A stretch of DNA of 64,000 nt from an uncultured Gammaproteobacteria bacterium (GCA_964489875.1 CAZAZW010000002.1:385-64384); one strand, 5' to 3'; shown: positions 5,701-61,938, counted from the stretch's first letter. Numbers and translations are program-made. Notes: generated by a model from the sequence alone, not told the origin.

Positions 5701-5775
5701 GCCGAAGTGGCTCAGTGGTAGAGCAGTGCTTTCGTAAAGCACGGGTCGTGGGTTCGATTCCCACCTTCGGCTCCA
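5701..5775 (+). tRNA. tRNA-Thr (anticodon CGU), CCA encoded
   Basis: Acceptor GCCGAAG/CTTCGGC, anticodon stem GTGCT/AGCAC with loop TTCGTAA, T-loop TTCGATT. Confidence 0.9.
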
Positions 5776-5823
5776 AAATCCATAGTCGTTTAACACCTCG
5801 TTTATTTGTGCTACCATGAGCTC

Positions 5824-30881: not shown

Positions 30882-30889
30882 CTTAAGTG

Positions 30890-33112: not shown

Positions 33113-33116
33113 ACTT

Positions 33117-42623: not shown

Positions 42624-42624
42624 T

Positions 42625-43740: not shown

Positions 43741-43758
43741 TTTGTTACAATGATAAAT

Positions 43759-44985: not shown

Positions 44986-45159
44986 GGTTTTGCGTTTTGT
45001 TTGTATAATTACATTACCAAATACAACCCGAAGTTGTCAATACCCTATTTAAGTAAGTAATTTGACTGAGAATTGGATTTCCATACCGGTTTCTTACAAA
45101 ATTACTATTTATTTTATACACGGCCCTGAGAGAATGGCTCATTAAGTATTACTTGATCA

Positions 45160-45204
45160 ATAAAGATTGTGATAAAGATTACAGAAAATTATAGGTTTAA
45201 GATT
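45160..45204 (+). promoter_or_regulatory. phased direct repeats (A)TAAAGATT x2 + TTAAGATT abutting a TATAAA -10-like hexamer
   Basis: taaagatt at 45161-45168 and 45173-45180, and ttaagatt at 45197-45204 (offsets of 12 and 24 nt). tataaa follows at 45204-45209, 33 nt upstream of the giant-gene ATG. Confidence 0.35.
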
Positions 45205-45242
45205 ATAAAATCAAAAAAATAAAAAGGCCATAAAGCCAACAA

Positions 45243-48200
45243 ATGATTAAAAATATTTTGTTTAAAAAATTTATTTCCGTCTTTGGTATTTTTTCTATTT
45301 TATTAAATCTCATGCTACCGCTTTTTACCGGGCAGCTGGCTTATGCCCAGGAAGCAACCACTGAACCGGCCCAGACTCAGGAGGTTTCTGCCACTGTTCC
45401 GGAGCCAACTGTTTCACCTACTGTGGAGACTCCGGCACCGGAAGTTTCTCCGGACTTGGCGCCTTCTCCTGAACCAACCCCTTCAGTTGAGCCAACGCCT
45501 TCAGTTAACCCGGAACCAACACCAGATGCCAGTCCGTCGCCCACCCCTGTACCTGATTTAACACCATCCCCTGAAGTTACCCCCAGCGCCTCTGTTGCTC
45601 CTGCTGCAGTTGAAATTTGGCAAGATACCGGAGATGGAAAATGGGAAACTATTAATAATGTAGAGACCGGAAGAGAATATAACGCTCGTCAGAATGAGAA
45701 AGTCAAAGTGAAGTTTACCGGAATTTCCGGAGAGGCTGGCAAGCTATCTATTAAAGAAGTAAAGTTAACCGCCGAACAGGTCAGCCAAACCGGAGCTTTG
45801 TCGGACACTGCCTTTGAAATTACCTCCACAATGGCAGACGGCACTTTCTTTTATGACCTGACTTTGCCTCTGCCACCTGAAGCTTCAGGAAAAGATATAG
45901 AAGTTGAGGCAGCTGAGTCACTGGATCAACTAAATCAGTCCCAGACAGTTTCTGAACCAAAAGAAGAAACTGCAGATACAATCACTATTCTTGGCTTAAA
46001 TCACTTTACGGTTTTTATTATCACTACTCCAAGTCCTGATACTCCTCAACCAGTTCTCATAAATGAAATCTTACCCAATCCGTCGGCCGGGGCCGAATGG
46101 GTTGAGCTTTACAATAACAGCCCTGATAGTGTTGATTTGGCAGCCGGCACCGGCTGGACTCTTAGAAACTCACTCAACAATTTCCAGCCGATTAGCGCCT
46201 TAGGTGTTATTCCGGCCGGAGGCAGGGTGGTTTTTGAGGCACCCTTAAATTGGCTGTCTAATGTTGGACCTGAGACAATTATCTTGTCAAATGGATCCGG
46301 TGATGCCGTAGATACGGTCACGATTTCCCTGACCTCGCCAGGTTTTGCTATTAACCATTATCCGGCAGCTGGAGAGTCGGTAGGTCGCAGAGTCGATGCC
46401 TCAACCGAGTGGATCATTTTTACTGCACCTACCAAAGGCAGTCCCAATGTTCTAGGTGCTCCGGCTGCACGGGCGGTGGCCTCAACCATTGAAGCCCACG
46501 GTTTCCCGACTTGGTATGCGGATGATTCCGGCACGCGGGTGGCAGCTTGTCTTGACGGATCAGATCCCAGATGTGCCATGGCTGGAGAACCCGGTTTTAA
46601 CCCTGCCTTGCCAACTGATTTTCCCGGCAGTAATTTCCCCTCGGAATTTTTCTACTGGAGCGCGGAAGCATTACTGGGTGGTTCAAGACTGGTAATGGCT
46701 GCTGAAGGAGCTTTCTTAAACGATGTCGTGGCAGAAGGCGACCAGATGGTCTTTGGACGATTGAGGATTGATTTGGGGGACTTAAGTCCTAACTCCACTT
46801 ATACGGTGACCCATCCTTATGGAGTTGAAATTATACAAACAGATGAGAGCGGTGGAGGCAGAAACGATAACCCTGATATCGGTTGTGAGGTGGCGCCGTG
46901 TGACTACGCGGCTGCTTTAGCCAGCTCGGTATTTCAATCATTTCTACGCTGGGATACTGGAGCTCCGGCAGGGTACCTTGGTGACGGCGTGACCGGACAC
47001 GTAGTTACAGGTTCACCCACTGGCAATAACTTCTTTAGGATCGAAGGCCCGGGACTGCCTGATGGAGGTATTGAAACCAGTTCCTTTGTGGTTTTAGGAA
47101 AATTATTTACCGATCCGGTAACTCCTCCTCCGGGTTGTGTCAACGTTGCCCCTGATGCTCCGACTCTAGCCTTGCCGGCCAATGGGACTACCGGTGTGGC
47201 AGTCAGTCCTACTCTCTCCTGGAATGCCATAGCCAGTTTTGGCACCAATTGCTTAGGCAATACCAACCAGTTTGAAATTTTTCTTGATTCAGGCAATGTT
47301 GACCCGACTACCTCATTCGGGTCAGTCTCAGAAGCAACTCTTTCAAAGCTTGTCATCGGTCTTTCCGCAAACACTACTTTTTCCTGGAAAGTGCGGGCCA
47401 AAAACGGCGCTTTGTTTACCGATTCTGCTGTTCAGACATTTACCACCGCGGCCGCAGTAGGCGGCCGGGCGGTCTCGCCCAACTTTGAGCCGGATAACGG
47501 TTTTCCGGCCTGGTACCGGGATGATGCCGGTATCATGGTAGTGCCCTGTCTTGACGGGGCTGATCCGAACTGTGCTGCCACACTGCCGCCGTTTGGGGAA
47601 GAACCCGGGTGGGACCCGAACCAGCCTACCGTATTTCCGACTAATTTCCCCTCCGAGTTTTTCTACTGGACAGGGGAAGCGGCAATTGATCAGGGAGGGG
47701 TAAGTGCCTTGCTGGTTTTGGCAGCAGAGGCGGCATTCTTAAATGAGAACCCGGCGCCCGCTGATCAGGCGACCTTTGGCCGGATTAGGGTCCGGGCCTC
47801 GGGACTTCTGCCAAATGAAACTTATACCGTTACCCACCCATACGGCCAGGATTTCTATACTACTAATGAATTTGGTGCTTTGCGTCCCAGCCCAAATACC
47901 GAGGATATCGGATGTTTTGTTTCCTTGTGTGATTTCTCGCTGGCCTTAAACAGCCGGATTTTCGGAGGCTTCTTGCGACAGACAACAGCGCCGGAAGGCT
48001 ATTTAGGAGACGGTTTAACATTTGCCCCGGTGGTTGGTTCACCTTTGGGTCAAAACTTCTTCAGGATTGAAGGCCCGGGGCTGCCATCAGGTGGTTTGGA
48101 AACTAACCTGTTTGCCACCTCCGGCAAAGTCCTTTTGGCTGTGCCCCCACCTCCAGTAGGATGTGTAGATACAGCTCCTGATGCTCCGCAACTGGCCGGT

Positions 48201-51200
48201 CCTGCAAACGGCGCTACCGAAGTCTCAACCAATCCGCCCGTTTCCTGGAACGGCCTGGGAAGCTTCGGTACCAACTGCCTCGGCGGCCGGGACCAGTTCG
48301 AGATATTCGTGGATCAGGGTACAGTTGCCGATCCTATAACCTCCAGGGGCACGGTTCTCGGTACCCAAACCAGCTTCAATATTGTTAACCTTTTACCCTC
48401 AACTACCTATTCCTGGAAAGTCCGGGCTTCAAACTCGGCACTGACGACTGACTCTGAAGTGCGCACCTTTACCACCACTGCCACGCAAGGAAAGGCTGTC
48501 TCGACCCCTCCGGAGGCTAATGGTTTTCCGGCCTGGTACCAGGATGATAATGGGGTTAGAGTGGCGCCCTGCCTTGACGGAGCAGATCCGAATTGTGTTT
48601 TGCCCGGTCCTGGTGAAGAACCGGGGTTTGATCCGACTCAACCCACTGCTGCTGTTTTACCAGGCAATTTCCCGTCCGAATTCTTCTGGTGGGTCGTCCA
48701 GTCAGAATCAGTACTCACTCCCGGCGGAGGGGAAGCAGATATCCGCTATGCCGCGGAAGGCGCCTTTTTCCCGGAAGTGATAGCAGACGGTAATCAAATC
48801 GCCTTCGGCAGAATCAGGGTGCGGGCCACCGGGCTTTTGCCCAACTCAGAATATACTGTTACTCACGCATACGGCGTTGATGTTTATCAAACCGATGGAA
48901 ACGGCATTATTACTGCCGGAGCAGGTACTGAAGATATCGGTTGCGAGGCTACTCCTTGCGATTTCACCTTGGCTTTAAGCAGCCGGGTGTTTGGCGGATT
49001 TTTGCAGATGGCAGCCGGAGCGCCGGTAGGCTATTTGGGTGACGGAGCGACGTTTGGGGCAGTCACCGGATCTCCGCTGAACCAAAACTTCTTTAGAATA
49101 GAAGGGCCGGGACTGCCGGCTGAGGGACTTCAAACAAATCTCTTTACCGTTTCCGGTAAACTTTTGGCAGCAGTACCTCCGGGGCCTGATGTTACTGCGC
49201 CCAGCTTAACAAGCTTCACTTCGACTACTGCTGACGGAACTTTTGGCCCGGGAGCAGAGATCAATATCACCGCTAATTTCAGTGAACCCTTGGCAGCCGG
49301 CAGCAGCGTTTCAGTGACTTTGGACAACGGTGTGCCGATTGAACTGGTAGCCTTGAGCCTAACTTCTGTTTCCGGAACTTATGTGGTGGGGCCCCTGGGT
49401 AGCGGCCAGGATTCCCCGGATTTGACAGTTGCTGCCATTAATACAATGAATGTTACCGATGCGGCCGGCAACCTGCAAACTGCAACCGCACTTCCAGCCA
49501 GCAACATTGCCGATACCAGTGATATTGTCATTAATACAACTACGGTAATTCCTCCACCGGCTACCACCGGCACCATCACCGTTATTAAAGACACGGTTCC
49601 AGATGATGTCCAGGATTTTGGATTCAGGCTTCGAAACGGCGCCCTGGATGAAAACTTCTCCCTGGATGATGACGGCAATGTCCTGAATGAATTGTCCAAT
49701 ACCAGAGTCTTTGCCGATCTGGCTGCCGGTTCCTATGATCTGCAGGAAACTTCTTTGGGCAGCTTTGTTCTGGACAGTATACTGTGTCTGGATCCGGACG
49801 GTGGTACCGCGGTCGACCTAAATTCCCGGACAGCCACCATTGACCTGGACGCAGGTGAAAATGTCATCTGTACCTTTACCAATTCCCTGCGTAATTCTAT
49901 TTCCGGAATGAAGTTCAGGGACTTAAACGGCAATGGTGTTAAAGAGGCAGGTGAACCGGGACTGTCGGGCTGGACGATCTTCCTGGATGAAAACGATAAT
50001 ACGATACTGGATGGCGGCGAACCTTCAGAGGTGACTGATGCAAACGGCAACTATCAATTTATTGATGTGGCAGGCGGGACACAAAATGTCCGGGAGGTGT
50101 TGCAGGCAGGCTGGACTCAAACTGCCCCGGCTGGTGGAAAGTATACCTTGGTCGTTGCTAACAACAGCTTTATCAACCAGGATTTTGGCAATGTTATAAC
50201 AACTGAAGTTTTAGGCGGCAGCTGGGCCTTAGCAGGTAATGATGACAGTTCTACTTCACAGATAGTGGCTCTGGAAGATATCACTGTGGAAATTTCTACC
50301 AACGGCGGGACCACAACTATTATAATTCCGGCCGGCACTGTTATTACACCGTCAGGAGGAGGTAACTTTGACCCGGGCTTGTTATCGGCTGCTGATTTCG
50401 ATGACAGTCTTTTGTCAGGCTTTTCTTCAGGTGTTGTGGCTGATGGGGCTTTGCAGTTTGGGATTCCCACGCTGGGACTCACCTTTAGCCAGCCGATTAC
50501 CATTAATTTCTTTGTCGGTGCTGCCTTTAACGGCCAAACCTTAAATATCCAGCGGTCAGTTTCCGGAACTGCCGGCTGGACCAGCGAGGGAATTGTTGCT
50601 CCGGCAACCTGCACTGTGGCGGATGGTATTTGCTCTTTCCAGGCCACTTTGGCATCGTTTTATGCGGCAACTCATACTGAGTCTATCCCAACTCCTGCTC
50701 CGGCTCCAGCTTCTAGTGGTGATGGCGGCGGCGGAGGTGGAGGCGGTGGTGGCAGTGCCAGCGCACCATCTTGTAATGATGCGCCGGCCGGTGGAGCACC
50801 AGCCTTACTTTCGGCTACTGTCTCAGGCGCTAATGAAGTCACCCTGACTTGGTCCAAGGCAGCTGATCCGGTAACTCACTATGTAATATCTTACGGATTA
50901 ACACCAGGTAATCCTCTTTTTGGAAATCCGAATGTGGGTGGAAAAGACACCACTTCTTACACTGTGAAAGATTTATCCGGCGGAACAACCTATTATTTCC
51001 GGGTCAGGGCTGGTAACGGCTGCAACGGCGGAGATTATTCAAATGAGATAGCTGCCACACCGGGTGGTCCGGCCACTGCCGGAGGCCCTGCCGCCGGTTT
51101 TACTGCGGGAGTATTAGGAGCCCAAGTTGGGGGAGCTCTGGGAGATGAAAATACAGGTACAGGTATTGGAGGTCCTAGCATTGAAGAATCTCCTTCCCCA

Positions 51201-51380
51201 AGCCCTGAGGTTTTAGGTGATGGGAATGTGGGAATTGGACTAGGGCAGCAGCAGGCAGGGATAGGCGGTCAGTCATTCCTAGGGTTTCTGCAAGCTCAAG
51301 GATGGTTACTGGGAATCTTAGCTGGTCTTGCCTTGCTGTTTGTCTTAAACCTTTATTACCGATACCGCAGAGTTTCCTGA
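45243..51380 (+). CDS. giant secreted, C-terminally anchored surface protein (2045 aa)
   Basis: Domain order: signal peptide, PT-rich linker, LTD-like domain, three repeats of an unknown Cys-containing domain with FN3-like inserts, Ig-like domain, SpaA/SdrD-B-like domains, FN3 domain, TM tail. Signal peptide ends ...LAYA-QE. LTD-like LINEILPNPSAGAEWVELYNNS. The three repeats are ~215 aa each (GFP.WY.DD, FPSEFFYW, TYTVTHPYG, NFFRIEGPGLP). Prealbumin-like GTITVIKDTVPDD...ICTFTNS; SdrD-B-like FRDLNGNGVKEAGEPGLSGW. Terminal TM plus RYRR. Confidence 0.85.
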   Translation: MIKNILFKKFISVFGIFSILLNLMLPLFTGQLAYAQEATTEPAQTQEVSATVPEPTVSPTVETPAPEVSPDLAPSPEPTPSVEPTPSVNPEPTPDASPSPTPVPDLTPSPEVTPSASVAPAAVEIWQDTGDGKWETINNVETGREYNARQNEKVKVKFTGISGEAGKLSIKEVKLTAEQVSQTGALSDTAFEITSTMADGTFFYDLTLPLPPEASGKDIEVEAAESLDQLNQSQTVSEPKEETADTITILGLNHFTVFIITTPSPDTPQPVLINEILPNPSAGAEWVELYNNSPDSVDLAAGTGWTLRNSLNNFQPISALGVIPAGGRVVFEAPLNWLSNVGPETIILSNGSGDAVDTVTISLTSPGFAINHYPAAGESVGRRVDASTEWIIFTAPTKGSPNVLGAPAARAVASTIEAHGFPTWYADDSGTRVAACLDGSDPRCAMAGEPGFNPALPTDFPGSNFPSEFFYWSAEALLGGSRLVMAAEGAFLNDVVAEGDQMVFGRLRIDLGDLSPNSTYTVTHPYGVEIIQTDESGGGRNDNPDIGCEVAPCDYAAALASSVFQSFLRWDTGAPAGYLGDGVTGHVVTGSPTGNNFFRIEGPGLPDGGIETSSFVVLGKLFTDPVTPPPGCVNVAPDAPTLALPANGTTGVAVSPTLSWNAIASFGTNCLGNTNQFEIFLDSGNVDPTTSFGSVSEATLSKLVIGLSANTTFSWKVRAKNGALFTDSAVQTFTTAAAVGGRAVSPNFEPDNGFPAWYRDDAGIMVVPCLDGADPNCAATLPPFGEEPGWDPNQPTVFPTNFPSEFFYWTGEAAIDQGGVSALLVLAAEAAFLNENPAPADQATFGRIRVRASGLLPNETYTVTHPYGQDFYTTNEFGALRPSPNTEDIGCFVSLCDFSLALNSRIFGGFLRQTTAPEGYLGDGLTFAPVVGSPLGQNFFRIEGPGLPSGGLETNLFATSGKVLLAVPPPPVGCVDTAPDAPQLAGPANGATEVSTNPPVSWNGLGSFGTNCLGGRDQFEIFVDQGTVADPITSRGTVLGTQTSFNIVNLLPSTTYSWKVRASNSALTTDSEVRTFTTTATQGKAVSTPPEANGFPAWYQDDNGVRVAPCLDGADPNCVLPGPGEEPGFDPTQPTAAVLPGNFPSEFFWWVVQSESVLTPGGGEADIRYAAEGAFFPEVIADGNQIAFGRIRVRATGLLPNSEYTVTHAYGVDVYQTDGNGIITAGAGTEDIGCEATPCDFTLALSSRVFGGFLQMAAGAPVGYLGDGATFGAVTGSPLNQNFFRIEGPGLPAEGLQTNLFTVSGKLLAAVPPGPDVTAPSLTSFTSTTADGTFGPGAEINITANFSEPLAAGSSVSVTLDNGVPIELVALSLTSVSGTYVVGPLGSGQDSPDLTVAAINTMNVTDAAGNLQTATALPASNIADTSDIVINTTTVIPPPATTGTITVIKDTVPDDVQDFGFRLRNGALDENFSLDDDGNVLNELSNTRVFADLAAGSYDLQETSLGSFVLDSILCLDPDGGTAVDLNSRTATIDLDAGENVICTFTNSLRNSISGMKFRDLNGNGVKEAGEPGLSGWTIFLDENDNTILDGGEPSEVTDANGNYQFIDVAGGTQNVREVLQAGWTQTAPAGGKYTLVVANNSFINQDFGNVITTEVLGGSWALAGNDDSSTSQIVALEDITVEISTNGGTTTIIIPAGTVITPSGGGNFDPGLLSAADFDDSLLSGFSSGVVADGALQFGIPTLGLTFSQPITINFFVGAAFNGQTLNIQRSVSGTAGWTSEGIVAPATCTVADGICSFQATLASFYAATHTESIPTPAPAPASSGDGGGGGGGGGGSASAPSCNDAPAGGAPALLSATVSGANEVTLTWSKAADPVTHYVISYGLTPGNPLFGNPNVGGKDTTSYTVKDLSGGTTYYFRVRAGNGCNGGDYSNEIAATPGGPATAGGPAAGFTAGVLGAQVGGALGDENTGTGIGGPSIEESPSPSPEVLGDGNVGIGLGQQQAGIGGQSFLGFLQAQGWLLGILAGLALLFVLNLYYRYRRVS
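46473..49185 (+). repeat. three tandem intragenic repeats (~993, ~1026 and ~694 nt) inside the 2045-aa gene
   Basis: Units start near 46473, 47466 and 48492. The 19-nt stretch ggttttccggcctggtacc is identical at 47499-47517 and 48522-48540. The protein units align along their full length. Confidence 0.85.
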
Positions 51381-51437
51381 GTATTGTAATTTTTCATCAG
51401 ACATATATAATGTGCCGGAAAGTTTATCTAGAATAGG

Positions 51438-54400
51438 GTGTTAAAACTCATAAGTTCAAAAATTCTCCCGGCACTATTAATTTTTACAGCTTTTCTTTTT
51501 GCCGGCCTTTTCGTTTTCTTCAAAGACAGCCTTGTAGTCTTTGCCCAAACCAACCACCAGACTCACAATATTGAATCCACAGCCAGCGCGGATATTTTAA
51601 GCAGTGAGGAGGCAACGCCGGCGGCTCAAGCCGATAATTTGCAGAATCCCCCGCCTGAAGCCTCTGATTCTGCCAGTTTAGCCCCTGATCTTTTATCGGA
51701 AGAAGCATCGCCGTCCGCTTTTACCATATCCTACCATTTGAAAGATGATGTTGGATTTGAAAATCCGATCAAGAAAGAATTCATAGGAGCTGGTGATTAT
51801 TTGATGAAAGTAATTTCCCGTCTGCCGCTTCAAGACAGCCCGCACTTGATTATTGATTCTGACGGCACCTTAAATGATGTGGAACATGGTACAACCAGCC
51901 GGATTTCTGAAAATATCTATGTCTACGAGAGGACTATTGTCAGCGATCCGGAAGCAGACGGCTCAAATGTCGAGATTATCAGAGTCCACGAAGCAATTGA
52001 TCTTGAGGGCAATATTATCGATGAAAATAGCGTTGAGGGGGCAAAATTTATCGATACCGTCAGCCCTTTACTGGTTATTTCGGACAATCAGCTAGATTCA
52101 ACTGTAAAAGGCAGGGATAGAGTTTTAATAACCGCCTGGTTTGCAGAAATCGGGAAAATGGATGAGGAGAACAAACCAAAAATTACCATCGGAACCTTTG
52201 TCCAAAATGAGGAGATGATCAAAAGGGATAACCAGACTTGGGTTTTTGTCTGGGAGGTGCCGGCGACGGAAACAACAGTGGTGAAAGTTTCTATTTCCGC
52301 CCGTGATGAGGCGGGAAACTTAAGTACAGACTCAGAAGACGCGCACTCTTATTTAATTGATAATCTCTTCTTTCTAAATTTAGCCGTAATTCCGCCACCT
52401 GCCCAAACCTGCGCTTCCGCAGAGAGGATCATCCGCTACCATGTCTCGGCGATTGATGTAGTTGTTCCTGTCAACGGCTGGGGTGATACCAATCCCATGG
52501 GTGTACTATACGCCTTAAATAACGCCGAGGCCGTGCCTAATGTTTCACAAATTAAAGACCGCAACTTTAAACTTTATGATTCCACAGACCAAAGTATTCC
52601 GTTAAAGACACAACCACTGGTGCTTCGGGCCAATGAGGGTGACTGTGTGGAAGTTATCTTAAGAAACGAGCTGGATACGGCTTTTGGCGGTATTGATCCT
52701 TTAACCTTAGAACCTATTGGCCCGGAAGATAATAAAAGAAACGTGGGTATGCAAATTTCCGGTTTACCCTATGACCCTAAGGATTCTGCCGGCGCTTTTG
52801 TCGGCAGAAATCCGGATACTACCGTAGCCCCTGGTGGCGAAAAGGTTTACCGCTGGTTTGCCGGCAGGCAGGGCGGATACATGTTCCGCGACAACTCCAA
52901 TATACAGTGGCCGCAAGATACCATCACCAAGGGACTTTTCGGGATGCTGATTGTGGAACCCAAGGGTTCAACGTGGAGAGACTCAATTACCGGCCGGAAT
53001 TTTTTAAAGGCCGCCTCCCAAAATAGTTTTGAATACGCGGACCTTTCGCCGATCGACCAAGACGATCTAGGAAGGAATATCTATTTGGGCGTCGGCGCCT
53101 CAGTTTTTGCAGATATCCATCAGGAGCCGGGGGCGCCCCTGCCCAAAGGCGCTTTGCTTTTAGAATCAGTCAGTGGCAACGACTTTCGCGACTATGCCTT
53201 AATCATACACGATGAGTTTGAAGGCATAACCGGGCCGGTGGCCTGGGAGGAGGATGGAAAAATTGCTTTTTACGGTACGCCGTTTTATCCGGCTACGGGA
53301 ATAGAAGACGGCACATCTTTAATCAATTACCGCTCAGAACCTTTAAGGAACCGGTATGCCGCCTGGGAGCGTCACCGGGGATTAATACCGGTACCGGGAA
53401 TCGGATTGGTGGATGGATCTAAAGAGATGGTTAAAGAAACTTCGGAAGTAAGAGTCACGGTCACACCTCCCTTGGTTAGGATTGAGTTTTTGGGGGAAGA
53501 AGGCGAGGTGACCGGCGAGGTAACGGTGGATTCCCAAAAATTGAAGGTAGTGATTCCCAATGGCAAAGTGTTTGATCCGGATGATGAGTTTTGCGGCGGC
53601 GGAAAATTTGCTTCTGATAATAAAAGGGAAGATGATCCTGAGTATACATTCTACAAATGTATAGGTGAGGAGGCGCATCTGCAGTCCTGGCCTTTTGGGG
53701 ATCCGGCAGTGGCTATGCCCAGGGCTTATTGGGGCGATCCGATAGTTTTGTTTGTGGGCAATGCTGATTCTCACGATACCCACACCTTTCACCAGCATGC
53801 TCACCGCTGGTTCCTTGATCCGAATCAGGCCGATATTTCAAAGATGCCCGTACCAGAAAATGATATCCAAAAAAGTACCCGGCTGGATGTGCAGGGGGTG
53901 GGAGCAATGGAAGTTTTCAAGCTGGTCTATGAGCAGGGTGCCGGAAGTGTGACTGGTACAGCGGGCGATTCCATCTTTCACTGCCATCTTTACCCCCACT
54001 TTGCCGGCGGGTTATGGAGCGCAGTCCGGGTTTTTGATAAGCTGAAGGTTAATTTTAGCGAGACTGCAAATATTCAAGCGACGCTTAAGGACGGCACACT
54101 CCTTTCTTATCCGGACGGAACAGACCAGGCGGTTTTGCAGCCTTTGCCGGCCAGGATAGTTTTGTTTGATAGCAAAAATCCAGATGCAGAGGATCATCGG
54201 GAAAAACCGCCGGCCGGAATGGCTAACAGGGTGCCTATGCCTCCTGATGCGGATCATCCCGGATACCCGGGTTTTGTGGCCGGTAAATTCGGGCAGAAAG
54301 CCCTGCAGCCGCCGATGTTTGTAATTGATCCGGCCACCGGCCAGCCCGTTAAGGATCGGGCTGTGCCTACTAAACTTGAAACGCTGGCTTCTTACGATGG

Positions 54401-57400
54401 TATCAGGCCCGGCGCTACTTTAGTTGATCCGTGCGCCGGAGTAAACGGTGAATTCGGACGAGATCGAAAACCGGATCGGATATACGAACCCGTGGCTATC
54501 CAGGTTCCGTTTATCCAAAACTTAAAAGGCGGTTTTTTCAATCCGGAACAGAGGGCTTATGTGGAAAAGGAACTGGTTGAATCAGTCAGGGGTGATCCCA
54601 CCCTGCTTCAGCCTTACTCATTCAGGGCCAACGTGGGGGATTGCGTCCAAGTCCAAACCACCAACAATTTGCAGCCTGATGATGAAACACCTACCCTTGG
54701 TGTCAATGACGGTATATTTCACGGTCCTACCAATACCCCGGAAATCTCCCAGCATATTCATCCGGTCAGGTTTGACCAGCTAGGTTCAGACGGAACATCG
54801 GTCGGCTGGAATTATGACATCAGTAATCGTTCAGGAGAAACGGCAGCTTACCGCTGGTTTGTCGATGTGAACGTGCGGACGGTTTTTTCTCATGACCACC
54901 AATTCCCGACCAGCCATCAGCAAGGGGGTCTTTGGGCGGCATTCATCAACGAGCCGCGGAATTCTTCTTACCTGAATCCGGAAACCGGACAGCCGCTCGG
55001 ACCAGTTCTTTCGGATCCAACTTATGAGCAAACCAGCAAAAAATATGCACCGGAGAACGTTAAAGGGGTGGGTACGGCTGCCAGCATCATTGTGAACAGT
55101 CCGACCGAAGATAAAGATGGAGGAATCAGCGGCGGCGGCGTTCCGGCTTTCCGTGAATTTATCGTACACTACAGCGACTTTACCCCCGCTTTTGTTGCAG
55201 AACCGCAAAACCTGCGAAAGGCCCTTGATGAGTATAAGGCAGGTAATAAAGAGGCCTTTTTTGATCCCTCTCTTCGGACAAATCCATTCAATCCTCCCTT
55301 TGAAGCGGATGATTATTTGGCCGACCAGGGAATATCGACTATTAATTACAAAGTTGAACCCTTCCAGGCTAGAGTTAACCCTGATAATCCTTTAGCCACC
55401 GCAGCTCAAAAAGACCCGGCATATGTTTTTAGTTCGGTTATTCACGGAGACCCTGAAACTGAAGTGTTTAGAGCGTACGCGGGAGATCCGGTAGTAGTTC
55501 GGCTAATGGATGGAGCGCATGAGGAGCATCACAATTTTGAAATCCACGGCCACCGGTGGCTGCACCAGCCCTCAAACCCTTTGAGTGTGTTAACAGACAA
55601 TCAGGCTTCCAATATCGGCGAGTTTTTTAATTTCGAACTGATCGGAAACACGAGGGTGGGGGATAAATCACTTAAAAATGATAACGAACTGGCAGCAGGA
55701 TTGCCGGGTGACTATCTTTTTGCCTCTAGTGCTATTTCCGAATTGTGGGATGGTGTCTGGGGAATCTTCAGGGTGGAAAACGGAAAAAAGGATAATTTGG
55801 CACCACTACCCGGAAGTCCTGAGCCTCCTCTTTTTGAGAATCTGGGACTTCTGGATCAGACCATAAACCCGGATGAGCCGGTTCCTCAAATTAACGAGGA
55901 TTTGATTAAAAGCGCGAGTCCCTGCCCTGTTAGCGCTCCAGTTAAAAGCTTTGATATTGCGGCTATTGCCCGGTCGATCACCTATAACAGTAAATATAAT
56001 GAAACTGACCCCTTTGGTCTTCTGTATGTTTTAGAGGAAGACCGTGAAGCTGTTTTAACCGGAACAAAGGATACCGAGCCGCTTACGATACGGGCCAATG
56101 CCGGGGACTGCATAAAAGTCAATTTAACCAATCACCTGCCGGATTTAACCGGCCTGGCGGAAAATACCCCGGTTGTACTGCCGGATGGGACTGTCTCTAA
56201 TACTTCCATTGACCCCAATACCATGCAGTATTTTGGAGAAGCCCAGCTTCATGCCGCAGTAGCAGGCTTACCGGAAGACCCGAATTTCATTTTTGCTAAA
56301 TGGCCTATTTCAAACCGAATCAGCCTGCATCCCCGGCTTATTAAAACTACAGCCAGTGCGGGCGATGGGGCAACCGTCGGATTTATGCGCGACCAAACAA
56401 TCGGGCCGGGAGAAAAAATAACCTACCTCTGGTATGCGGATACGGAGGTAGGGTCAGTGCTGTTGGAAGATTTTGCCGATGTAAGAAGCCATAAGCAACA
56501 CGGCCTGTTTGCCGGTTTGATCATCGAGCCGAAAGATTCGCAGTATCTTGACCCGACTGATCTTTCCCAAGAGATCAAAAGCGGAACAAGCGCGGTTATA
56601 CACGATAGCTCAACCGGTAAACTGACCAGGGAATTCGTTCCCTTTTATGCCACCGGCCTTAATTTAAGGCAGGGTGAAGCTATTATACCTGATGCCGAAG
56701 GGGTGCAAGGACCGGGAGAGATGGAACATCAGCCTTGCTCCCCGCCAAACGCTCTTTGCGAAGATGTGGAGCAGTCAGGAGAAGCAGGCATCAATTACCG
56801 GACTGAGAGACTGGTCAACCGGGTGCCGTTTAACTTAACCGGTGCTCACGCCGGACATCCGAATGAAATAAACTTTGATCCCAATGCTTTCAAAGCATTC
56901 AGCTCTTCTGATTTTGAGGATCCGGCTACGCCGATATTTGAAGCGTTTGTGGAAGATCCGACTGTGTTTCGTTTTATGTTCCCGGGCGGCAATTCCAATG
57001 CCCACGCTGTCGGTTTGGACGGGCACAGCTTTAAACATGAGCCCAATGATCCTGACACAAACATAGTCAGTACTGTAGGTAGTGTCACGCCGGGTAAAGT
57101 CCTAAACCTGTTTCTTCTAGGTGGAGCAGGCGGAGAGCGGCAGGCAACCGGAGACTATTTATTCGGCACCAGAAATCATGTCGAACCGTCAACTTTGCAG
57201 GGTGGACTTTGGGGACTTTTTAGGGTTTTGGCAAATGATGCTTCTGCCAAAATCAAGCCACTTGTCATGCCTCCCTCGCCTTCTCCTACACCTACCCTAT
57301 CTTCTACCTCAACACCAGCACCTTCAGGCGAAACAGTTATCGCTACCAGCGCATTGGTTTGTAATGACGCTAAACCCGGCAGCGCTCCGGTGCTTTCGGT

Positions 57401-57899
57401 CACATCAGCCGGTGAGAGTGAAGTCATTTTGTCTTGGCTGAAAGCTGCCGATCCGGTTACTTATTACCTGTTGGCCTTTGGGTTGTCTACAGGCACCCTG
57501 CAGTATGGCAATCCGAATATCGGGGACAATAACACTACTTCCTATACGGTTAAGGATCTGTCAGGCGGTACCACCTATTACTTTAAAATAAGAGCCGGCA
57601 ATGGTTGCGCGCCTGGGGAATTCTCCAACGAAGTGTCAGTGGCGGTAGGAGGAGTAGCTTTGGTAGGTCTACCATCAGGCTTTGAAGCGGGAATTTTGGG
57701 CACCAGCACAACTCCTTCTCCTTCGCCCGAGGTTTTAGGGATAGGGGACGGGAATGTGGGGCTTGGGGGTAATGTTACCCAGCAGGCAGAGGAAAGAGAG
57801 TCACCCTTAAGTTTTCTGCAAACCCAAAGACTGATGTTTGGAATATTAGCCGGTCTTATTTTACTATTTGTCTTAAACATCTTTTACCGCAGGGCCTAG
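51438..57899 (+). CDS. giant secreted, C-terminally anchored multicopper-oxidase-like protein (2153 aa; six cupredoxin-like domains as three two-domain units)
   Basis: GTG start; signal/TM N-terminus. HTFHQHAHRW (53781-53810) and HCHLYPHFAGGL (53979-54014) match MCO motifs HxxHxH and HCHx3Hx4L. QHIHP (HIH at 54753-54761) and SHDHQ (HDH at 54891-54899) match HxH motifs. HHNFEIHGHRW lies at 55527-55559. Each of the three units ends GD(S/Y)(I/L)F...GG(L/V)W..(F/V)RV. The C-terminal FN3 + TM tail is homologous to that of the upstream gene. Confidence 0.8.
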   Translation: MLKLISSKILPALLIFTAFLFAGLFVFFKDSLVVFAQTNHQTHNIESTASADILSSEEATPAAQADNLQNPPPEASDSASLAPDLLSEEASPSAFTISYHLKDDVGFENPIKKEFIGAGDYLMKVISRLPLQDSPHLIIDSDGTLNDVEHGTTSRISENIYVYERTIVSDPEADGSNVEIIRVHEAIDLEGNIIDENSVEGAKFIDTVSPLLVISDNQLDSTVKGRDRVLITAWFAEIGKMDEENKPKITIGTFVQNEEMIKRDNQTWVFVWEVPATETTVVKVSISARDEAGNLSTDSEDAHSYLIDNLFFLNLAVIPPPAQTCASAERIIRYHVSAIDVVVPVNGWGDTNPMGVLYALNNAEAVPNVSQIKDRNFKLYDSTDQSIPLKTQPLVLRANEGDCVEVILRNELDTAFGGIDPLTLEPIGPEDNKRNVGMQISGLPYDPKDSAGAFVGRNPDTTVAPGGEKVYRWFAGRQGGYMFRDNSNIQWPQDTITKGLFGMLIVEPKGSTWRDSITGRNFLKAASQNSFEYADLSPIDQDDLGRNIYLGVGASVFADIHQEPGAPLPKGALLLESVSGNDFRDYALIIHDEFEGITGPVAWEEDGKIAFYGTPFYPATGIEDGTSLINYRSEPLRNRYAAWERHRGLIPVPGIGLVDGSKEMVKETSEVRVTVTPPLVRIEFLGEEGEVTGEVTVDSQKLKVVIPNGKVFDPDDEFCGGGKFASDNKREDDPEYTFYKCIGEEAHLQSWPFGDPAVAMPRAYWGDPIVLFVGNADSHDTHTFHQHAHRWFLDPNQADISKMPVPENDIQKSTRLDVQGVGAMEVFKLVYEQGAGSVTGTAGDSIFHCHLYPHFAGGLWSAVRVFDKLKVNFSETANIQATLKDGTLLSYPDGTDQAVLQPLPARIVLFDSKNPDAEDHREKPPAGMANRVPMPPDADHPGYPGFVAGKFGQKALQPPMFVIDPATGQPVKDRAVPTKLETLASYDGIRPGATLVDPCAGVNGEFGRDRKPDRIYEPVAIQVPFIQNLKGGFFNPEQRAYVEKELVESVRGDPTLLQPYSFRANVGDCVQVQTTNNLQPDDETPTLGVNDGIFHGPTNTPEISQHIHPVRFDQLGSDGTSVGWNYDISNRSGETAAYRWFVDVNVRTVFSHDHQFPTSHQQGGLWAAFINEPRNSSYLNPETGQPLGPVLSDPTYEQTSKKYAPENVKGVGTAASIIVNSPTEDKDGGISGGGVPAFREFIVHYSDFTPAFVAEPQNLRKALDEYKAGNKEAFFDPSLRTNPFNPPFEADDYLADQGISTINYKVEPFQARVNPDNPLATAAQKDPAYVFSSVIHGDPETEVFRAYAGDPVVVRLMDGAHEEHHNFEIHGHRWLHQPSNPLSVLTDNQASNIGEFFNFELIGNTRVGDKSLKNDNELAAGLPGDYLFASSAISELWDGVWGIFRVENGKKDNLAPLPGSPEPPLFENLGLLDQTINPDEPVPQINEDLIKSASPCPVSAPVKSFDIAAIARSITYNSKYNETDPFGLLYVLEEDREAVLTGTKDTEPLTIRANAGDCIKVNLTNHLPDLTGLAENTPVVLPDGTVSNTSIDPNTMQYFGEAQLHAAVAGLPEDPNFIFAKWPISNRISLHPRLIKTTASAGDGATVGFMRDQTIGPGEKITYLWYADTEVGSVLLEDFADVRSHKQHGLFAGLIIEPKDSQYLDPTDLSQEIKSGTSAVIHDSSTGKLTREFVPFYATGLNLRQGEAIIPDAEGVQGPGEMEHQPCSPPNALCEDVEQSGEAGINYRTERLVNRVPFNLTGAHAGHPNEINFDPNAFKAFSSSDFEDPATPIFEAFVEDPTVFRFMFPGGNSNAHAVGLDGHSFKHEPNDPDTNIVSTVGSVTPGKVLNLFLLGGAGGERQATGDYLFGTRNHVEPSTLQGGLWGLFRVLANDASAKIKPLVMPPSPSPTPTLSSTSTPAPSGETVIATSALVCNDAKPGSAPVLSVTSAGESEVILSWLKAADPVTYYLLAFGLSTGTLQYGNPNIGDNNTTSYTVKDLSGGTTYYFKIRAGNGCAPGEFSNEVSVAVGGVALVGLPSGFEAGILGTSTTPSPSPEVLGIGDGNVGLGGNVTQQAEERESPLSFLQTQRLMFGILAGLILLFVLNIFYRRA

Positions 57900-57920
57900 A
57901 ATAATTTTAAGATACGCTAG

Positions 57921-57950
57921 TTGACAGAATCTTCTTTTTTGAGATAAAGT
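57921..57950 (+). promoter_or_regulatory. candidate sigma70-type promoter for the protease gene
   Basis: TTGACA (57921-57926), a 17-18 nt spacer, then ATAAAG/TAAAGT (57944-57950), with the ATG at 57958. Confidence 0.3.
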
Positions 57951-57957
57951 TAAATTA

Positions 57958-59151
57958 ATGTTGCTCCGGGTTTTTAAACTGGTTTTAGTTCCCGCTTTTT
58001 TGATATTCCTTTTTCTACCGGCGGCTCAAGTATTCGCTTCTCAGCCCACAGGTAGCCCAGAAAGGATTCTGGTTAAATTTTCCTCCAGGCCTGAGAAAGC
58101 AGCAATTGTTTCGAGAATCCGTGCCAAGGAAATCTCGGAAATTCCCCGGATTGGCGTAGCTGTTTTAGAAGTGAAGGATGCGGTAGAGGCAATTAGGAAT
58201 TTAAGAAACGAGAGGATAGATTATGTGGAAATTGATGCTGTTGCCACAACTTTAAGTAATGATGCCTTGTATCCTAACCAGTGGGCTTTACCAAAAATTT
58301 CCTGGGATAAGTTAGATGCCAGTGCCAGCGCGTATAATCCGGTTGAACCCTCAGTCAGGATTGCGGTGGTTGATACCGGGGTGGATTATACCCACCCGGA
58401 TCTTTCCGGCAAAGTTGATACCGGCCAGGATTGGGATTTTGTTAATAATGATAACGATGCCATGGATGATAATCTGCACGGGACTCACGTGGCAGGAATT
58501 GCAGCTGCAGCTACGAACAACAGCACCGGCATTGGAGGAGTATCAATAAACACTGCCAAAATTCTGCCGGTTAAGGTTTTAAACCAGAGTGGCAGCGGCT
58601 ACTATTCCTGGATTGCCTCAGGTATTATCTATGCGGTTGACCACGGAGCAAAGGTAATTAATTTAAGTTTGGGTGGGAGTGTTAGATCAACTGCCTTGGA
58701 GCAGGCTGTTAATTATGCCTGGAATAATGGGGCAGTAGTAGTAGCTGCGGCCGGCAATAGTAACAATTCTTCCAAGACTTATCCCGGAGCCTATGATAAA
58801 GCCATGGCTGTTTGGGCCTCGGATCAAAACGATGCCAAGGCCTCATTTTCCAGTTATGGCAGATGGGTTGATATAGGAGCTCCCGGAGTAAGCATCCTAA
58901 GCACGATACCTTTTATTAAGGATACTAAGGATGGCAGTCAAGACAGTTATTATTTGGGTAGTGGTACCAGTATGGCTACTCCGCATGTGGCCGGATTGGC
59001 CGGATTAATTATTTCCCAGAATCCTGGCTGGTCGGCCTCACAGGTGAGAAGTAAAATTGAATCAACTGCTGATCCTGGGATAGATAAATGGTTTCAAAGA
59101 GGTTATTTGGGAAAAGGAAGAATTAATATCCTCCGTGCGTTAACTCAGTAA
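57958..59151 (+). CDS. secreted S8 (subtilisin-family) serine protease with I9-like propeptide
   Basis: Signal peptide ...QVFA-SQ and the catalytic triad motifs VAVVDTGVDYTHPDL (Asp), HGTHVAGIAAA (His) and GTSMATPHVAGLAGL (Ser). Confidence 0.9.
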   Translation: MLLRVFKLVLVPAFLIFLFLPAAQVFASQPTGSPERILVKFSSRPEKAAIVSRIRAKEISEIPRIGVAVLEVKDAVEAIRNLRNERIDYVEIDAVATTLSNDALYPNQWALPKISWDKLDASASAYNPVEPSVRIAVVDTGVDYTHPDLSGKVDTGQDWDFVNNDNDAMDDNLHGTHVAGIAAAATNNSTGIGGVSINTAKILPVKVLNQSGSGYYSWIASGIIYAVDHGAKVINLSLGGSVRSTALEQAVNYAWNNGAVVVAAAGNSNNSSKTYPGAYDKAMAVWASDQNDAKASFSSYGRWVDIGAPGVSILSTIPFIKDTKDGSQDSYYLGSGTSMATPHVAGLAGLIISQNPGWSASQVRSKIESTADPGIDKWFQRGYLGKGRINILRALTQ

Positions 59152-59162
59152 AAATATTTACC

Positions 59163-59281
59163 CAGATGAGGGGTAGGGCCGGGAATTTTCGGTAGATATA
59201 TATTTTTAGTCAGATCTCCCTGTTATTCCTGGTAATACCTGATAGCTCATCCTATCAAGTCTTTTCCTACCCCCAAGCCTG
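59163..59281 (+). repeat. inverted-repeat-bounded intergenic element, copy 2
   Basis: Termini are cagatgaggggtaggg (59163-59178) and cctacccccaagcctg (59266-59281). The core ggggtagg/cctacccc (59170-59177 / 59266-59273) pairs perfectly. Relative to copy 1 the C:G pair is replaced by T:A on both arms. Confidence 0.55.
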
Positions 59282-59355
59282 AGTTGTATGCATATTAAGA
59301 TAATAATAAAAGAATCTTGCGAAAGAAGTGTAAGAGTTGCGTTAGAGCTTCTATT

Positions 59356-60639
59356 TTATCTAGCATCCATGGCCATTCGTAATCTTTTTGCGATGGTTGG
59401 TATATCTTTTGTATCTCTAGGTATGACCATGCGTACACATCGGCCTTTTTGACCCACTTTATATTCAAGCTGAGACATATCGTCAGGTATAGTGTATCTA
59501 TAAGGCTCAAACCCTGATGTAACCTCCAGTTGCTGCCTTTTTACTTCTTCATAAAAGCCAGGGTATCCACCATCAATAAGTAGAATAGGTGTACGGCGGT
59601 CTGTAAGGAAAGATTTTATACCTTTATCACCAAACTCCTGTAAGACTTCGCTTTTTACTCTTACGGTTTCTTCCCGGGTTCTACCCAGATGTCTTTCTAA
59701 AATATTTGGTTCGAGTATTCTATTGGCAATGAGTTGTGGTATTCCTGATAAATCACAGACTCTTCGTACCTTTTGGCACTGTTCACCCACCTCTTTGGAC
59801 GCAACCATATAGCCTTTTCTAAGGCCAGGTAGTCCGATTGATTTTGAGAGTGAACGGATAACTACAAGGTTAGGGTATTTTTCTGTTAATGGTATTGCCG
59901 AGTATTTATCTTCTACCGCATCGCCAAATGCCTCATCTACGATGAGCAGATGCTGTTTCTTTTGCGAACACACCCGTGCGAGATCATTTATTGCTTCAAA
60001 GCTCGCCAAATCCCCGGTAGGAGTATTGGGGTTTGTAATATAAAAAATAATATTTTCTCTTGGATCGTTGTAAAAAACAGAGGCCATTCTTCTCATTACT
60101 TGTTCATATGGTGTATAGATAGTAACGTCTGTTTGAAACGTTTCATAACGGATTCTTTGCTCTCTAGTTTTATTGCCTTCCCTATCAAAGAGGGTGTGCC
60201 GGTCTATGAAATTTAAGACATGGGGATATTGATGTATTGGCCCGATAATTTTGGTTAATCCGGATTCAGCGCGAATACTTATCAGTTGAGTAAGAAGTCT
60301 TTCTGCTATTTCATCGCTGCCGCCACTGCTAAAGGCAATATATGGAGTGGTTCCAATTCCAAATCGTTCTCTTACAAAACTGATTGCCGGCGAAGCATCT
60401 ACCGCATAAGTGAATAGTGCTTTTACAAGTTCCCCGCTTGCGGCAAGATCTTCTATTATGGAGTAAATTTCAGGGGGTGGTCCAAAAGGCGTGACACCGT
60501 AATCTAAGCGGATGGCTTCAGGTGAAGGCTTGTCTATCACATAGTGTTCTGGATCAAGAATAGCTCTTATGACCCGGGGAAGAATGTATTTTTGCTCACC
60601 TGCATCTTTGCCCTCAAGATTTAATCCCATAGGATGCAA
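59356..60639 (-). CDS. class I/II PLP-dependent aminotransferase-fold enzyme
   Basis: NPNTPTG, the acidic DEAF motif and the Lys motif SLSKSIGLPGLRKGY, characteristic of HisC/AspC-type aminotransferases. Confidence 0.75.
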   Translation of the reverse strand: MHPMGLNLEGKDAGEQKYILPRVIRAILDPEHYVIDKPSPEAIRLDYGVTPFGPPPEIYSIIEDLAASGELVKALFTYAVDASPAISFVRERFGIGTTPYIAFSSGGSDEIAERLLTQLISIRAESGLTKIIGPIHQYPHVLNFIDRHTLFDREGNKTREQRIRYETFQTDVTIYTPYEQVMRRMASVFYNDPRENIIFYITNPNTPTGDLASFEAINDLARVCSQKKQHLLIVDEAFGDAVEDKYSAIPLTEKYPNLVVIRSLSKSIGLPGLRKGYMVASKEVGEQCQKVRRVCDLSGIPQLIANRILEPNILERHLGRTREETVRVKSEVLQEFGDKGIKSFLTDRRTPILLIDGGYPGFYEEVKRQQLEVTSGFEPYRYTIPDDMSQLEYKVGQKGRCVRMVIPRDTKDIPTIAKRLRMAMDAR

Positions 60640-60690: not shown

Positions 60691-61938
60691 ATGAGGATTA
60701 TGGCATACAAGATTAAAGATAAGATAGAATTTCTAGCTGACGCAAGTAAAATCCTTGCCTCATCTCTTGACTATGATAAAACATTGTCCAATATTGCCCA
60801 TTTGGTTGTAAATTCTATTGCAGATTTCTGCATGATTGATCTTTTTAATGAGAAGGGGGAATTGTATCGGGTGGCAGCTAGGGTATCTAGTTCCAATAAA
60901 GAAAGAAGAGAATTAGCGCACCAGATGTTCAGTTATCAAGCTGACCCCAGGAATAAGGGGGCAATTTATGATGCAGCTAGATTAGGTGAGGCAATTCTTG
61001 TGGAAAGTTTATCAAAGAAGTGGCGCGAGCTTTCCAGAATTCCCGAGGAACGAGCAATTATTAGAAAATTGAGAATGGAATCATTAATTTTTGTACCTAT
61101 GGAAAGTAGAAACAGAATGATAGGCGTTTTAACATTGGTTTTAATTGGTAAAGGCTCTAATTATAACGAGAAAGACGTAGTGTTGGCACAGGAATTAGCT
61201 AGTAGAGCTGCTGTAGCTGTTGATAATGCCCGCCTTTTCTTGCAGTCTCAAGAAGCTTTGAAATTGCGGGATCTATTTATCTCCATGGCGGCTCATGAAC
61301 TTCGGACCCCGCTTACTACCATCAGTGGTTATATTCAGCTTTTACATTCTAAATTCAAGGGAGCCAATACCAAGGAAGCCAGATGGGTTGACGATCTTGC
61401 CTATGAGTCCTCAAGGCTAACAAAGTTGGTTAATGAGCTACTGGAGGTTAATCGTATCAAGACAGGTCAATTCGAATATTCCTGGACAGAGTGTAGCTTA
61501 AACGAGGTGATCAGGCGGGCAATATCGGATTTCCGCTTTACATATCCAGGACACCAAATTATTTTGCAGGATAGAATAGTGGATGGTAAAGATATGGTCA
61601 TAGGGGACTTTAATAAATTACTACAGCTTATAATTAACCTTTTAGATAATGCGGCTAAGTTTTCTTCTCCTGAATCCAAAATTGTAATTAGATTAAGATC
61701 TAAGGTTCGTCATTTGTATTTAAGTATCAAAGATCATGGGAAAGGGATATCTAAAAAGGATCTACCAGAAATCTTTGAAAAGTTCCAAAAAGGTAGTGAT
61801 CATACTGAAGAAGGAATAGGGCTGGGATTATTTTTGGCTAAAATTATCACTAAAGCGCATCGGGGTAAGATAAAAATTTATTCCAAGGAGAACATGGGAA
61901 CAACAGTAGATATTATTCTCCCGAAGGTAAAAAAATGA
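60691..61938 (+). CDS. cytoplasmic GAF-domain sensor histidine kinase
   Basis: GAF-like N-terminal ~180 aa (ESLIFVPMESRNRMIGVLTLV), H-box AAHELRTPLTTI, ATPase boxes LLDNAAKFS, DHGKGI, GIGLGLF. Confidence 0.8.
   Translation: MRIMAYKIKDKIEFLADASKILASSLDYDKTLSNIAHLVVNSIADFCMIDLFNEKGELYRVAARVSSSNKERRELAHQMFSYQADPRNKGAIYDAARLGEAILVESLSKKWRELSRIPEERAIIRKLRMESLIFVPMESRNRMIGVLTLVLIGKGSNYNEKDVVLAQELASRAAVAVDNARLFLQSQEALKLRDLFISMAAHELRTPLTTISGYIQLLHSKFKGANTKEARWVDDLAYESSRLTKLVNELLEVNRIKTGQFEYSWTECSLNEVIRRAISDFRFTYPGHQIILQDRIVDGKDMVIGDFNKLLQLIINLLDNAAKFSSPESKIVIRLRSKVRHLYLSIKDHGKGISKKDLPEIFEKFQKGSDHTEEGIGLGLFLAKIITKAHRGKIKIYSKENMGTTVDIILPKVKK

Follow-up and report, generated by a model that had tools for sequence, protein, structure and literature searches.

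An MnxG-type six-domain multicopper oxidase encoded on a Candidatus Daviesbacteria chromosome

What kind of protein is encoded by the very large open reading frame (ORF) at 51438..57899 of CAZAZW010000002.1:385-64384 (a stretch of 64 kb, analyzed as a whole and referred to below as the window), and what could it do for the cell that carries it? The ORF begins with a GTG codon on the plus strand and specifies a product of 2153 amino acids (aa), of which an exact-sequence look-up found no identical copy on record in public assemblies. An earlier interpretation of the DNA by itself (the sequence-only reading) had proposed a multicopper oxidase (MCO) with a layout not described in bacteria. The protein looked unfamiliar because Pfam barely recognizes its MCO domains: Cu-oxidase_3 gives 31.5 bits summed over its matches, which exceeds the cut-off of 21, and Cu-oxidase_2 has an E value of 0.56. 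The gene product is a member of the MnxG-type, or bacterial six-domain, MCO family, and the unusual arrangement of its copper sites, though genuine, has been described in bacteria before. We give a probability of about 0.8 to the reading that it is an extracellular, O2-reducing, cell-surface MCO of the MnxG family, carried on a Candidatus (Ca.) Daviesbacteria chromosome. Within this reading, the analysis directly shows the fold, membership in the family and the conserved ligand set.

The 2153-aa protein contains three homologous segments, at aa ~330-880, ~1005-1455 and ~1498-1936. BLASTP comparisons between pairs of units (aa 320-900, 985-1460 and 1490-1935) gave E values of 2e-19, 7e-18 and 1e-29, and a three-way MAFFT alignment gave 27-34% identity among them. 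The motif quoted by the sequence-only reading for the start of each unit, P(L/Y)xxRANxGDCxxV...N.L, and that for its end, GD(S/Y)(I/L)F....GG(L/V)WxxxRV, fall in matching columns of all three units in this alignment. The protein thus consists of three two-domain units, as had been claimed, and has the six cupredoxin domains on one chain by which bacterial six-domain MCOs are recognized.

Motifs of the HxH or HCH type occur in the whole protein only at aa 785 (HTFHQHAH), 848 (HCHLYPHFAGGL), 1106 (QHIHP), 1152 (SHDHQ) and 1370 (HNFEIHGH). All four canonical MCO motifs (HxH, HxH, HxxHxH and HCHx3Hx4(M/L/F)) are present, providing eight His for a trinuclear cluster and the His2Cys set of a type 1 (T1) copper site. 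In motif 3, H782 is predicted to bind the T1 copper and H785 and H787 the trinuclear cluster; in motif 4, H848 and H850 would belong to the cluster, C849 and H854 to the T1 site, and L859 would occupy the axial position. The complete ligand set is confined to domain 2 (motifs 3 and 4) and domain 3 (motifs 1 and 2), at the junction of units 1 and 2. In the unit alignment, H1365 and H1370 are all that remains of motif 3 in domain 4, where HCH is gone, and domains 1, 5 and 6 are essentially devoid of copper ligands.

Eleven ligands (H782, H785, H787, H848, C849, H850, H854, H1106, H1108, H1152 and H1154) are invariant in family alignments with 22 and 29 members, which span about 36-89% identity. 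The axial T1 position, Leu859 here, is Leu or Ile in the close clade and Met or Phe in other family members. One T1 site in domain 2 and one eight-His trinuclear site between domains 2 and 3, which are neighbors in the sequence, had both been proposed from the sequence, and both are upheld by alignment of the motifs with MnxG and by the invariance of the ligands. A comparison of the ligand table with the definition in PMC3600357 identifies this combination as the MnxG type. An enzyme of the copper nitrite reductase type, with a T1 site, a mononuclear three-His type 2 copper at the interface of subunits and no trinuclear cluster, is ruled out by the complete and invariant set of eight His. The motif left in domain 4, AHEEHHxFExHGHRW (55518-55562, aa 1361-1375), is kept throughout the family, including Bacillus MnxG (AHEESHSFN.HG), despite the loss of its partner HCH, and may constitute an additional metal-binding site, possibly for the substrate.

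A phmmer search of PDB sequences returned one overwhelming match, 9bxa_A, the MnxG of Bacillus sp. PL-12 (E 1.7e-159). The alignment comprises four stretches that cover all six domains, and it places the MnxG ligand motifs HVFHYHVHQW, HCHLYP(A)F, FHIHF and FHDHL on those of the window protein. The Ala at residue 340 of 9bxa is the engineered H340A substitution (the entry is titled 'Structure of Mnx H340A complex'); a wild-type Bacillus homologue reads HCHLYPHF. In NCBIfam, the sole match was NF041487, copper_ox_MnxG (251.3 bits, E 1.1e-74, profile length 1894). A word-indexed protein search gave 708 matches at E<=1e-5, many of them labeled 'manganese oxidase' or 'multicopper oxidase domain-containing protein', and an exhaustive search with aa 693-1500 as query showed an MnxG-type family of 405 clusters (50% identity) at E<=1e-30, with lengths of about 1200-3800 aa.

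For aa 320-1500, AlphaFold2 with the 29-sequence alignment as input gave a model with a predicted local distance difference test (pLDDT) score of 77.4 and a pTM of 0.80. Its best Foldseek match was again 9bxa_A (E 6.9e-69, TM 0.61), followed by ceruloplasmin, coagulation factors V and VIII, ascorbate oxidase and two-domain laccases, all of which identify a cupredoxin fold. Similarity to MnxG is therefore significant over the full length in both sequence and structure, and the claim of a single-chain, six-domain MCO holds. Within domain 2, the model and the alignment reveal an insert (aa ~645-735), beta-rich and confidently folded, that is missing from Bacillus MnxG and has no Pfam match at E<=10. 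The positions of all features are collected in Table 1.

Table 1. Features of the oxidase gene and its immediate neighbors (positions in the window)
Feature	Position	Strand	Basis
MnxG-type six-domain multicopper oxidase, whole gene	51438..57899	+	PDB 9bxa_A E 1.7e-159; NF041487 251 bits, under equivalog cut-off; stop codon included
Putative signal peptide or anchor at the N-terminus, aa 1-36: hydrophobic KILPALLIFTAFLFAGLFVFF, followed by ...VVFAQT	51438..51545	+	Inferred by eye; N-terminus of homologue P0001 similar
Acidic/Ser-rich linker and all-beta N-terminal region, aa 37-325	51546..52412	+	AlphaFold2 beta strands only; conserved only in homologues P0001 and P0002
Cupredoxin domain 1, aa ~330-525, without copper ligands	52425..53012	+	Aligned to MnxG residues 4-163; unit alignment; AlphaFold2 pLDDT about 90
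Cupredoxin domain 2, aa ~545-870, containing the T1 site and one half of the trinuclear site	53070..54047	+	MnxG alignment, AlphaFold2, unit alignment
MCO motif 3 HTFHQHAHRW, aa 782-791	53781..53810	+	Invariant in 22 and 29 sequences; aligns with MnxG HVFHYHVHQW
MCO motif 4 HCHLYPHFAGGL, aa 848-859	53979..54014	+	Invariant H-C-H...H
Conserved domain 2-domain 3 linker including HPGYPGFVAGKFGQKALQPP, aa 871-1009	54048..54464	+	Aligned to MnxG 351-445; invariant P/G/F columns
Cupredoxin domain 3, aa ~1010-1190, other half of trinuclear site	54465..55007	+	Motif search, MnxG and family alignments
Domain 3 HIH, aa 1106-1108	54753-54761	+	Trinuclear ligands H1106, H1108
Domain 3 HDH, aa 1152-1154	54891-54899	+	Trinuclear ligands H1152, H1154
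Cupredoxin domain 4, aa ~1215-1450, with remnants of copper motifs: AHEEHHNFEIHGHRW retained, HCH lost	55080..55787	+	Family and unit alignments
Cupredoxin domain 5, aa ~1498-1705, no ligands left	55929..56552	+	Unit BLASTP, MnxG and unit alignments
Cupredoxin domain 6, aa ~1715-1936, ligands lost	56580..57245	+	Aligned to MnxG 920-1205; unit alignment
Fibronectin type III domain, aa 1986-2067, Pro/Ser/Thr linker before it	57393..57638	+	Pfam PF00041 E 2.3e-10
C-terminal anchor module, aa ~2085-2153: SPSPSPEVLG...GNVG..., transmembrane helix aa 2132-2150, RRA	57690..57896	+	Matches C-terminus of ORF 45243..51380
Upstream partner: 2045-aa surface protein, LTD/FN3/SpaA/SdrD-like domains	45243..51380	+	Pfam; ends 57 bp before oxidase gene, same strand
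Downstream subtilase (S8) with fervidolysin-type prodomain	57958..59151	+	Pfam; missing at this position in loci L081, L082

The window itself is a piece of the chromosome of a groundwater Ca. Daviesbacteria bacterium (Candidate Phyla Radiation [CPR]/Patescibacteria) that lives as a fermentative anaerobe. This assignment is made because the 64 kb encode LexA, DnaE, GatA/B, CysS, PolX, pyruvate formate-lyase and bacterial tRNAs, and because the DnaE is 85-86% identical to Ca. Daviesbacteria proteins; it is also 100% identical to a protein on one NCBI contig. Archaeal DNA or a Borg element, which came into consideration as the best named homologues of the oxidase are from Methanoperedens, is ruled out by LexA, DnaE, GatAB and the bacterial tRNAs. 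A 247-aa ORF (33099-33842, plus strand) overlaps the pyruvate formate-lyase gene and may encode its activating enzyme. An oxygen-sensitive glycyl-radical enzyme and an O2-dependent oxidase are thus encoded in one genome.

How the oxidase might be held at the cell surface is suggested by its two ends. At its C-terminus, a stretch of 69 aa resembles the end of the protein encoded by the upstream ORF 45243..51380 (58% identity, E 2e-21). In both proteins this module (51189-51377 and 57690-57896) reads SPSPSPEVLG..GNVG.., followed by a transmembrane (TM) helix, GILAGLxLLFVLN, and basic residues, and has the appearance of a C-terminal signal for anchoring or sorting that is specific to the lineage. 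By this reading of the two termini, the oxidase would be displayed at the cell surface by means of its leader and its C-terminal TM tail. The claim that the oxidase is fused to extra domains holds for the fibronectin type III (FN3) domain and the C-terminal hydrophobic tail. The Ig-like nature proposed for the N-terminal part was not confirmed, as that region has no Pfam match at E<=10 and its model (aa 85-336), all-beta, has an unreliable pLDDT of 40.6.

The catalytic chemistry of such a protein we infer by homology to MCOs in general. In the proposed scheme, the signal peptide would export the protein, and the C-terminal TM tail, common to it and the apparently co-transcribed giant LTD/FN3 protein, would hold it on the cell envelope. 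A reducing substrate would deliver single electrons to the lone T1 copper in domain 2 (H782, C849 and H854, with Leu859 as the axial, non-coordinating residue). The H848-C849-H850 tripeptide would carry them to the trinuclear cluster (H785, H787, H848 and H850 of domain 2; H1106, H1108, H1152 and H1154 of domain 3), where four-electron reduction of O2 to water would take place; domains 1, 4, 5 and 6 would act as copper-less cupredoxin scaffolds. A non-coordinating axial Leu is associated in other MCOs with a high T1 potential.

By analogy with the family, the substrate is most likely a metal ion. Manganese, as Mn(II)/Mn(III), would be the best single guess, with a chance at or slightly below even; Fe(II), Cu(I) and phenolics are the alternatives. 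The oxidase also appears to work without MnxE and MnxF subunits, unlike Bacillus Mnx. Lack of these subunits is compatible with activity, since Bacillus MnxG is the one characterized MCO described as needing accessory proteins (PMC5622069) and Pseudomonas putida MnxG acts independently of McoA (PMC11930936).

Several findings weigh against the reading of a surface oxidase of MnxG type. Identity to Bacillus MnxG is only about 28-33%, and the NF041487 score stays far below the equivalog cut-off of 3100 bits, so that substrate specificity cannot be carried over with confidence. That the His and Cys side chains would converge is deduced from conserved motifs and from the homology to 9bxa, and the signal peptide and TM helix were assigned by eye from the sequence. 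MnxE and MnxF, which active Bacillus Mnx requires, were identified upstream of MnxG in about 40 Bacillota loci, and their identity was confirmed by comparison with 9bxa_B and 9bxa_E (E about 5e-32). Hidden Markov models (HMMs) built from these proteins had no match in six-frame translations of the window or of loci L001, L002 and L081-083 (best E 0.065); the MnxE and MnxF genes that lie directly upstream of MnxG in the Mnx complex are thus missing within the 64 kb. The host, finally, has an anaerobe-type enzyme, pyruvate formate-lyase (formate C-acetyltransferase; 30887-33112, plus strand, 1135 bits), and fermentation without oxygen is the general way of life of CPR bacteria; a micro-oxic niche would therefore be needed for an O2-dependent oxidase.

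The low identity (about 30%) to experimentally proven Mn oxidases, the lack of MnxE/F in the 64-kb window and the closest loci, and the anaerobic way of life of the hosts, with pyruvate formate-lyase in the window and Methanoperedens/Methanosarcinales as nearest relatives, speak for an enzyme with the same fold and copper sites and another role. Candidate roles are those of a ferroxidase or cuprous oxidase, of a phenol oxidase resembling laccases, or chiefly of an O2-scavenging surface oxidase protecting an oxygen-sensitive fermenter (Methanoperedens in the archaeal relatives). An axial Leu or Ile in place of the Met of Bacillus MnxG points the same way, and MCOs often have broad substrate ranges. 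However, the only characterized members of the six-domain family are Mn oxidases, a high-potential T1 site with a non-coordinating axial residue would also suit the oxidation of Mn(II)/Mn(III), and the locus holds no hints of phenolic metabolism or iron uptake. We regard a role of this other kind as a serious contender whose chances fall somewhat short of even.

Loss of catalysis altogether is very improbable. Like factor V, the protein could have kept the MCO fold as a structural or adhesive surface component and form a giant surface layer jointly with the LTD/FN3 protein encoded upstream; four of the six domains are without ligands, the oxidase is fused to FN3 and has its anchor in common with a 2045-aa adhesin-like protein, and Foldseek also matches factors V/VIII. 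However, active MnxG is ligand-free in those same four domains (PMC3600357 and our alignment), and a dead scaffold is unlikely because the remaining T1 and trinuclear ligands are invariant: all 11 are kept over 29 sequences of about 36-89% identity, which argues for selection for catalysis. The weakest proposal, a new bacterial architecture in which a ceruloplasmin-like enzyme had its active site moved to the domain 2/3 junction, has in its favor that Pfam alone barely recognizes the protein, and is practically dismissed, together with the claim of an undescribed layout, by the solved structure of MnxG with the same architecture (9bxa), by the domain 2/3 location described for all bacterial six-domain MCOs analyzed and for algal Fox1 (PMC3600357), and by the 405 clusters of the family.

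The MnxG-type surface oxidase falls into a tight clade, as no more than 13 proteins reach 55% identity and the next relatives, which include another Daviesbacteria protein, are at about 37%. Relatives on genome contigs were located with an alignment-based pattern scan, patterns taken from a single protein having given none. The named genomes in the clade are those of Ca. Methanoperedens nitroreducens Mnv1 (58%) and a Methanosarcinales metagenome-assembled genome (55%), and the archaeal relatives (Ca. Methanoperedens/Methanosarcinales; L001, L002, L084 and L086) are 55-69% identical. Two more members lie on contigs with archaeal-type neighbors, and one of these proteins ends in a PGF-CTERM-like signal. 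In two of the archaeal loci (L084, 2062-7449 and 14045-15910; L086, 13168-19803), the MnxG-like gene is accompanied by genes for two Cu-oxidase_3 proteins of about 510-600 aa, one fused to CarboxypepD_reg, and a 621-aa beta-propeller (YNCE/YtkA-like) is encoded directly downstream. Neither the smaller Cu-oxidase_3 proteins nor the beta-propeller is found in the 64-kb window.

In a distance-based neighbor-joining tree (1295 columns, 200 bootstrap replicates; the hosts of several members are unconfirmed), the 13-sequence clade was recovered in 200/200 replicates, the four CPR-like sequences were monophyletic in 171/200, and the Methanosarcinales sequence (P0011) was basal in 199/200. Archaeal sequences formed a monophyletic group in 3/200 replicates without P0011 and in 0/200 with it. 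GC content is 46-51% in the block 44000-60000, which contains the two giant genes and the S8 protease gene, vs. 35-41% in the remaining window. GC at third codon positions (GC3) is 0.455-0.475 in the two giant genes vs. 0.32-0.44 in housekeeping genes. These values fit a foreign origin of the block. Because the CPR-like sequences nest inside archaeal ones and GC and GC3 are raised, the data suggest transfer of the oxidase gene between archaea and CPR, probably in the direction from archaea to CPR.

A more specific scenario is offered tentatively, as something we would not bet on: the tight clade would comprise MnxEF-independent, surface-anchored oxidases of CPR bacteria (Ca. Daviesbacteria and relatives) and the anaerobic methane-oxidizing Methanoperedens/Methanosarcinales, spread by a fairly recent transfer of the 5-kb gene into a symbiont-type genome of ~1 Mb, with each lineage adding its own anchor. 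As part of that same doubtful scenario, the anchors would be a TM tail with FN3 in CPR and PGF-CTERM in at least one archaeal homologue. If the transfer is real, it may point to the CPR and Methanoperedens lineages being associated, ecologically or physically, and to an O2-dependent oxidase of Mn or another metal, serving cryptic Mn cycling or oxygen defense, in consortia supposed to be strictly anaerobic. A literature search for this oxidase in Methanoperedens or CPR bacteria found no relevant report.

The pair of genes for the surface protein and the oxidase, with LexA upstream, recurs in the two closest loci. In one of these (L081) the oxidase homologue is 88% identical and a sortase is encoded nearby; in the other (L082), from a groundwater metagenome, it is 71% identical. 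The S8 protease is not conserved beside the homologues in these two loci, which rules it out as a dedicated maturation partner. Sensor histidine kinases are encoded near the locus (40287-43779 and 60691-61938; MEDS-PAS-HisKA, PAS-HisKA and GAF-HisKA), as is a Crp-type regulator, and a MEDS-HisKA kinase gene lies directly upstream of the gene for homologue P0003 (L085, 477-1802); a regulatory link with the oxidase may exist. Elsewhere in the window, a 328-aa ORF on the minus strand (4790-5776) overlaps plus-strand genes for tRNA-Gly (5564-5638) and tRNA-Thr (5701-5775), and its 5' part is probably non-coding.

The catalytic layout of the oxidase is textbook for the MnxG family and leaves the understanding of MCOs unchanged. 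What the window documents, as far as sequence can tell, is that a CPR bacterium displays on its surface a six-domain, O2-reducing oxidase that is complete and seems to be functional. CPR genomes are typically around 1 Mb, and the surface protein-oxidase gene pair occupies about 12.6 kb. That the nearest relatives are in Methanoperedens archaea makes this a candidate case of inter-domain transfer between anaerobes tied to metal cycling. As a natural MnxG-type enzyme without MnxE/F, the oxidase could also be expressed more readily than Bacillus Mnx in studies of mechanism or for remediation.

Comparison with known systems delimits what is particular to the window oxidase. Ceruloplasmin is a ferroxidase. 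The sequence-only reading's description of the protein as ceruloplasmin-like is right for the fold, as ceruloplasmin and hephaestin also have six cupredoxin domains derived from a triplicated two-domain unit (Foldseek E about 1e-23, about 10% identity). It does not hold for the copper sites: ceruloplasmin forms its trinuclear site from domains 1 and 6 (PMC3600357), whereas domains 1 and 6 of the window oxidase lack HxH and HCH and its domain 4 lacks HCH. A T1 site in domain 4 has been reported for Fox, Heph and Cp (PMC3600357). Chlamydomonas Fox1, set beside the window oxidase by description only, likewise has its trinuclear site in domains 2 and 3, but is a eukaryotic ferroxidase with more T1 sites (PMC3600357). 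The prokaryotic six-domain MCOs that Vasin et al. (2013) collected with MnxG as query have the trinuclear site in domains 2/3 (PMC3600357).

Among bacterial relatives, proteins of 1200-2500 aa from Actinomycetota and Bacillota (Actinoplanes, Terrabacter, Arthrobacter) have the same ligand set. The actinobacterial ones are 34-37% identical and cover 99% of the core. These relatives differ in having other anchoring domains or none and an axial Met or Phe, and they form a clade apart from the Daviesbacteria/Methanoperedens group. The MnxG of P. putida GB-1 (NF041487) is a large MnxG-type MCO that catalyzes Mn oxidation on its own, independently of McoA (PMC11930936); it differs from the window oxidase (251 bits vs. 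the cut-off of 3100) in accessory domains, host and envelope type.

The closest solved system is the MnxG of Bacillus sp. PL-12 in the Mnx complex (MnxG-E3F3; 9bxa), which oxidizes Mn(II) and Mn(III) and has been described as the sole characterized MCO that depends on accessory proteins (PMC5622069). The two proteins are alike in having six cupredoxin domains on one chain, the domain 2/3 linker and the domain-4 motif AHEE.H..F..HG. Bacillus MnxG covers only 72-74% of the window-oxidase core, which has about 400 residues more, including the folded domain-2 insert (aa ~645-735). The window oxidase differs further in its N-terminal extension of ~325 aa and its C-terminal FN3 domain and TM anchor, in an axial Leu in place of Met, and in the absence from the window of the MnxE and MnxF genes that are present with Bacillus MnxG. 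Bacillus Mnx sits in the exosporium of a spore-former; the host of the window oxidase is a CPR bacterium.

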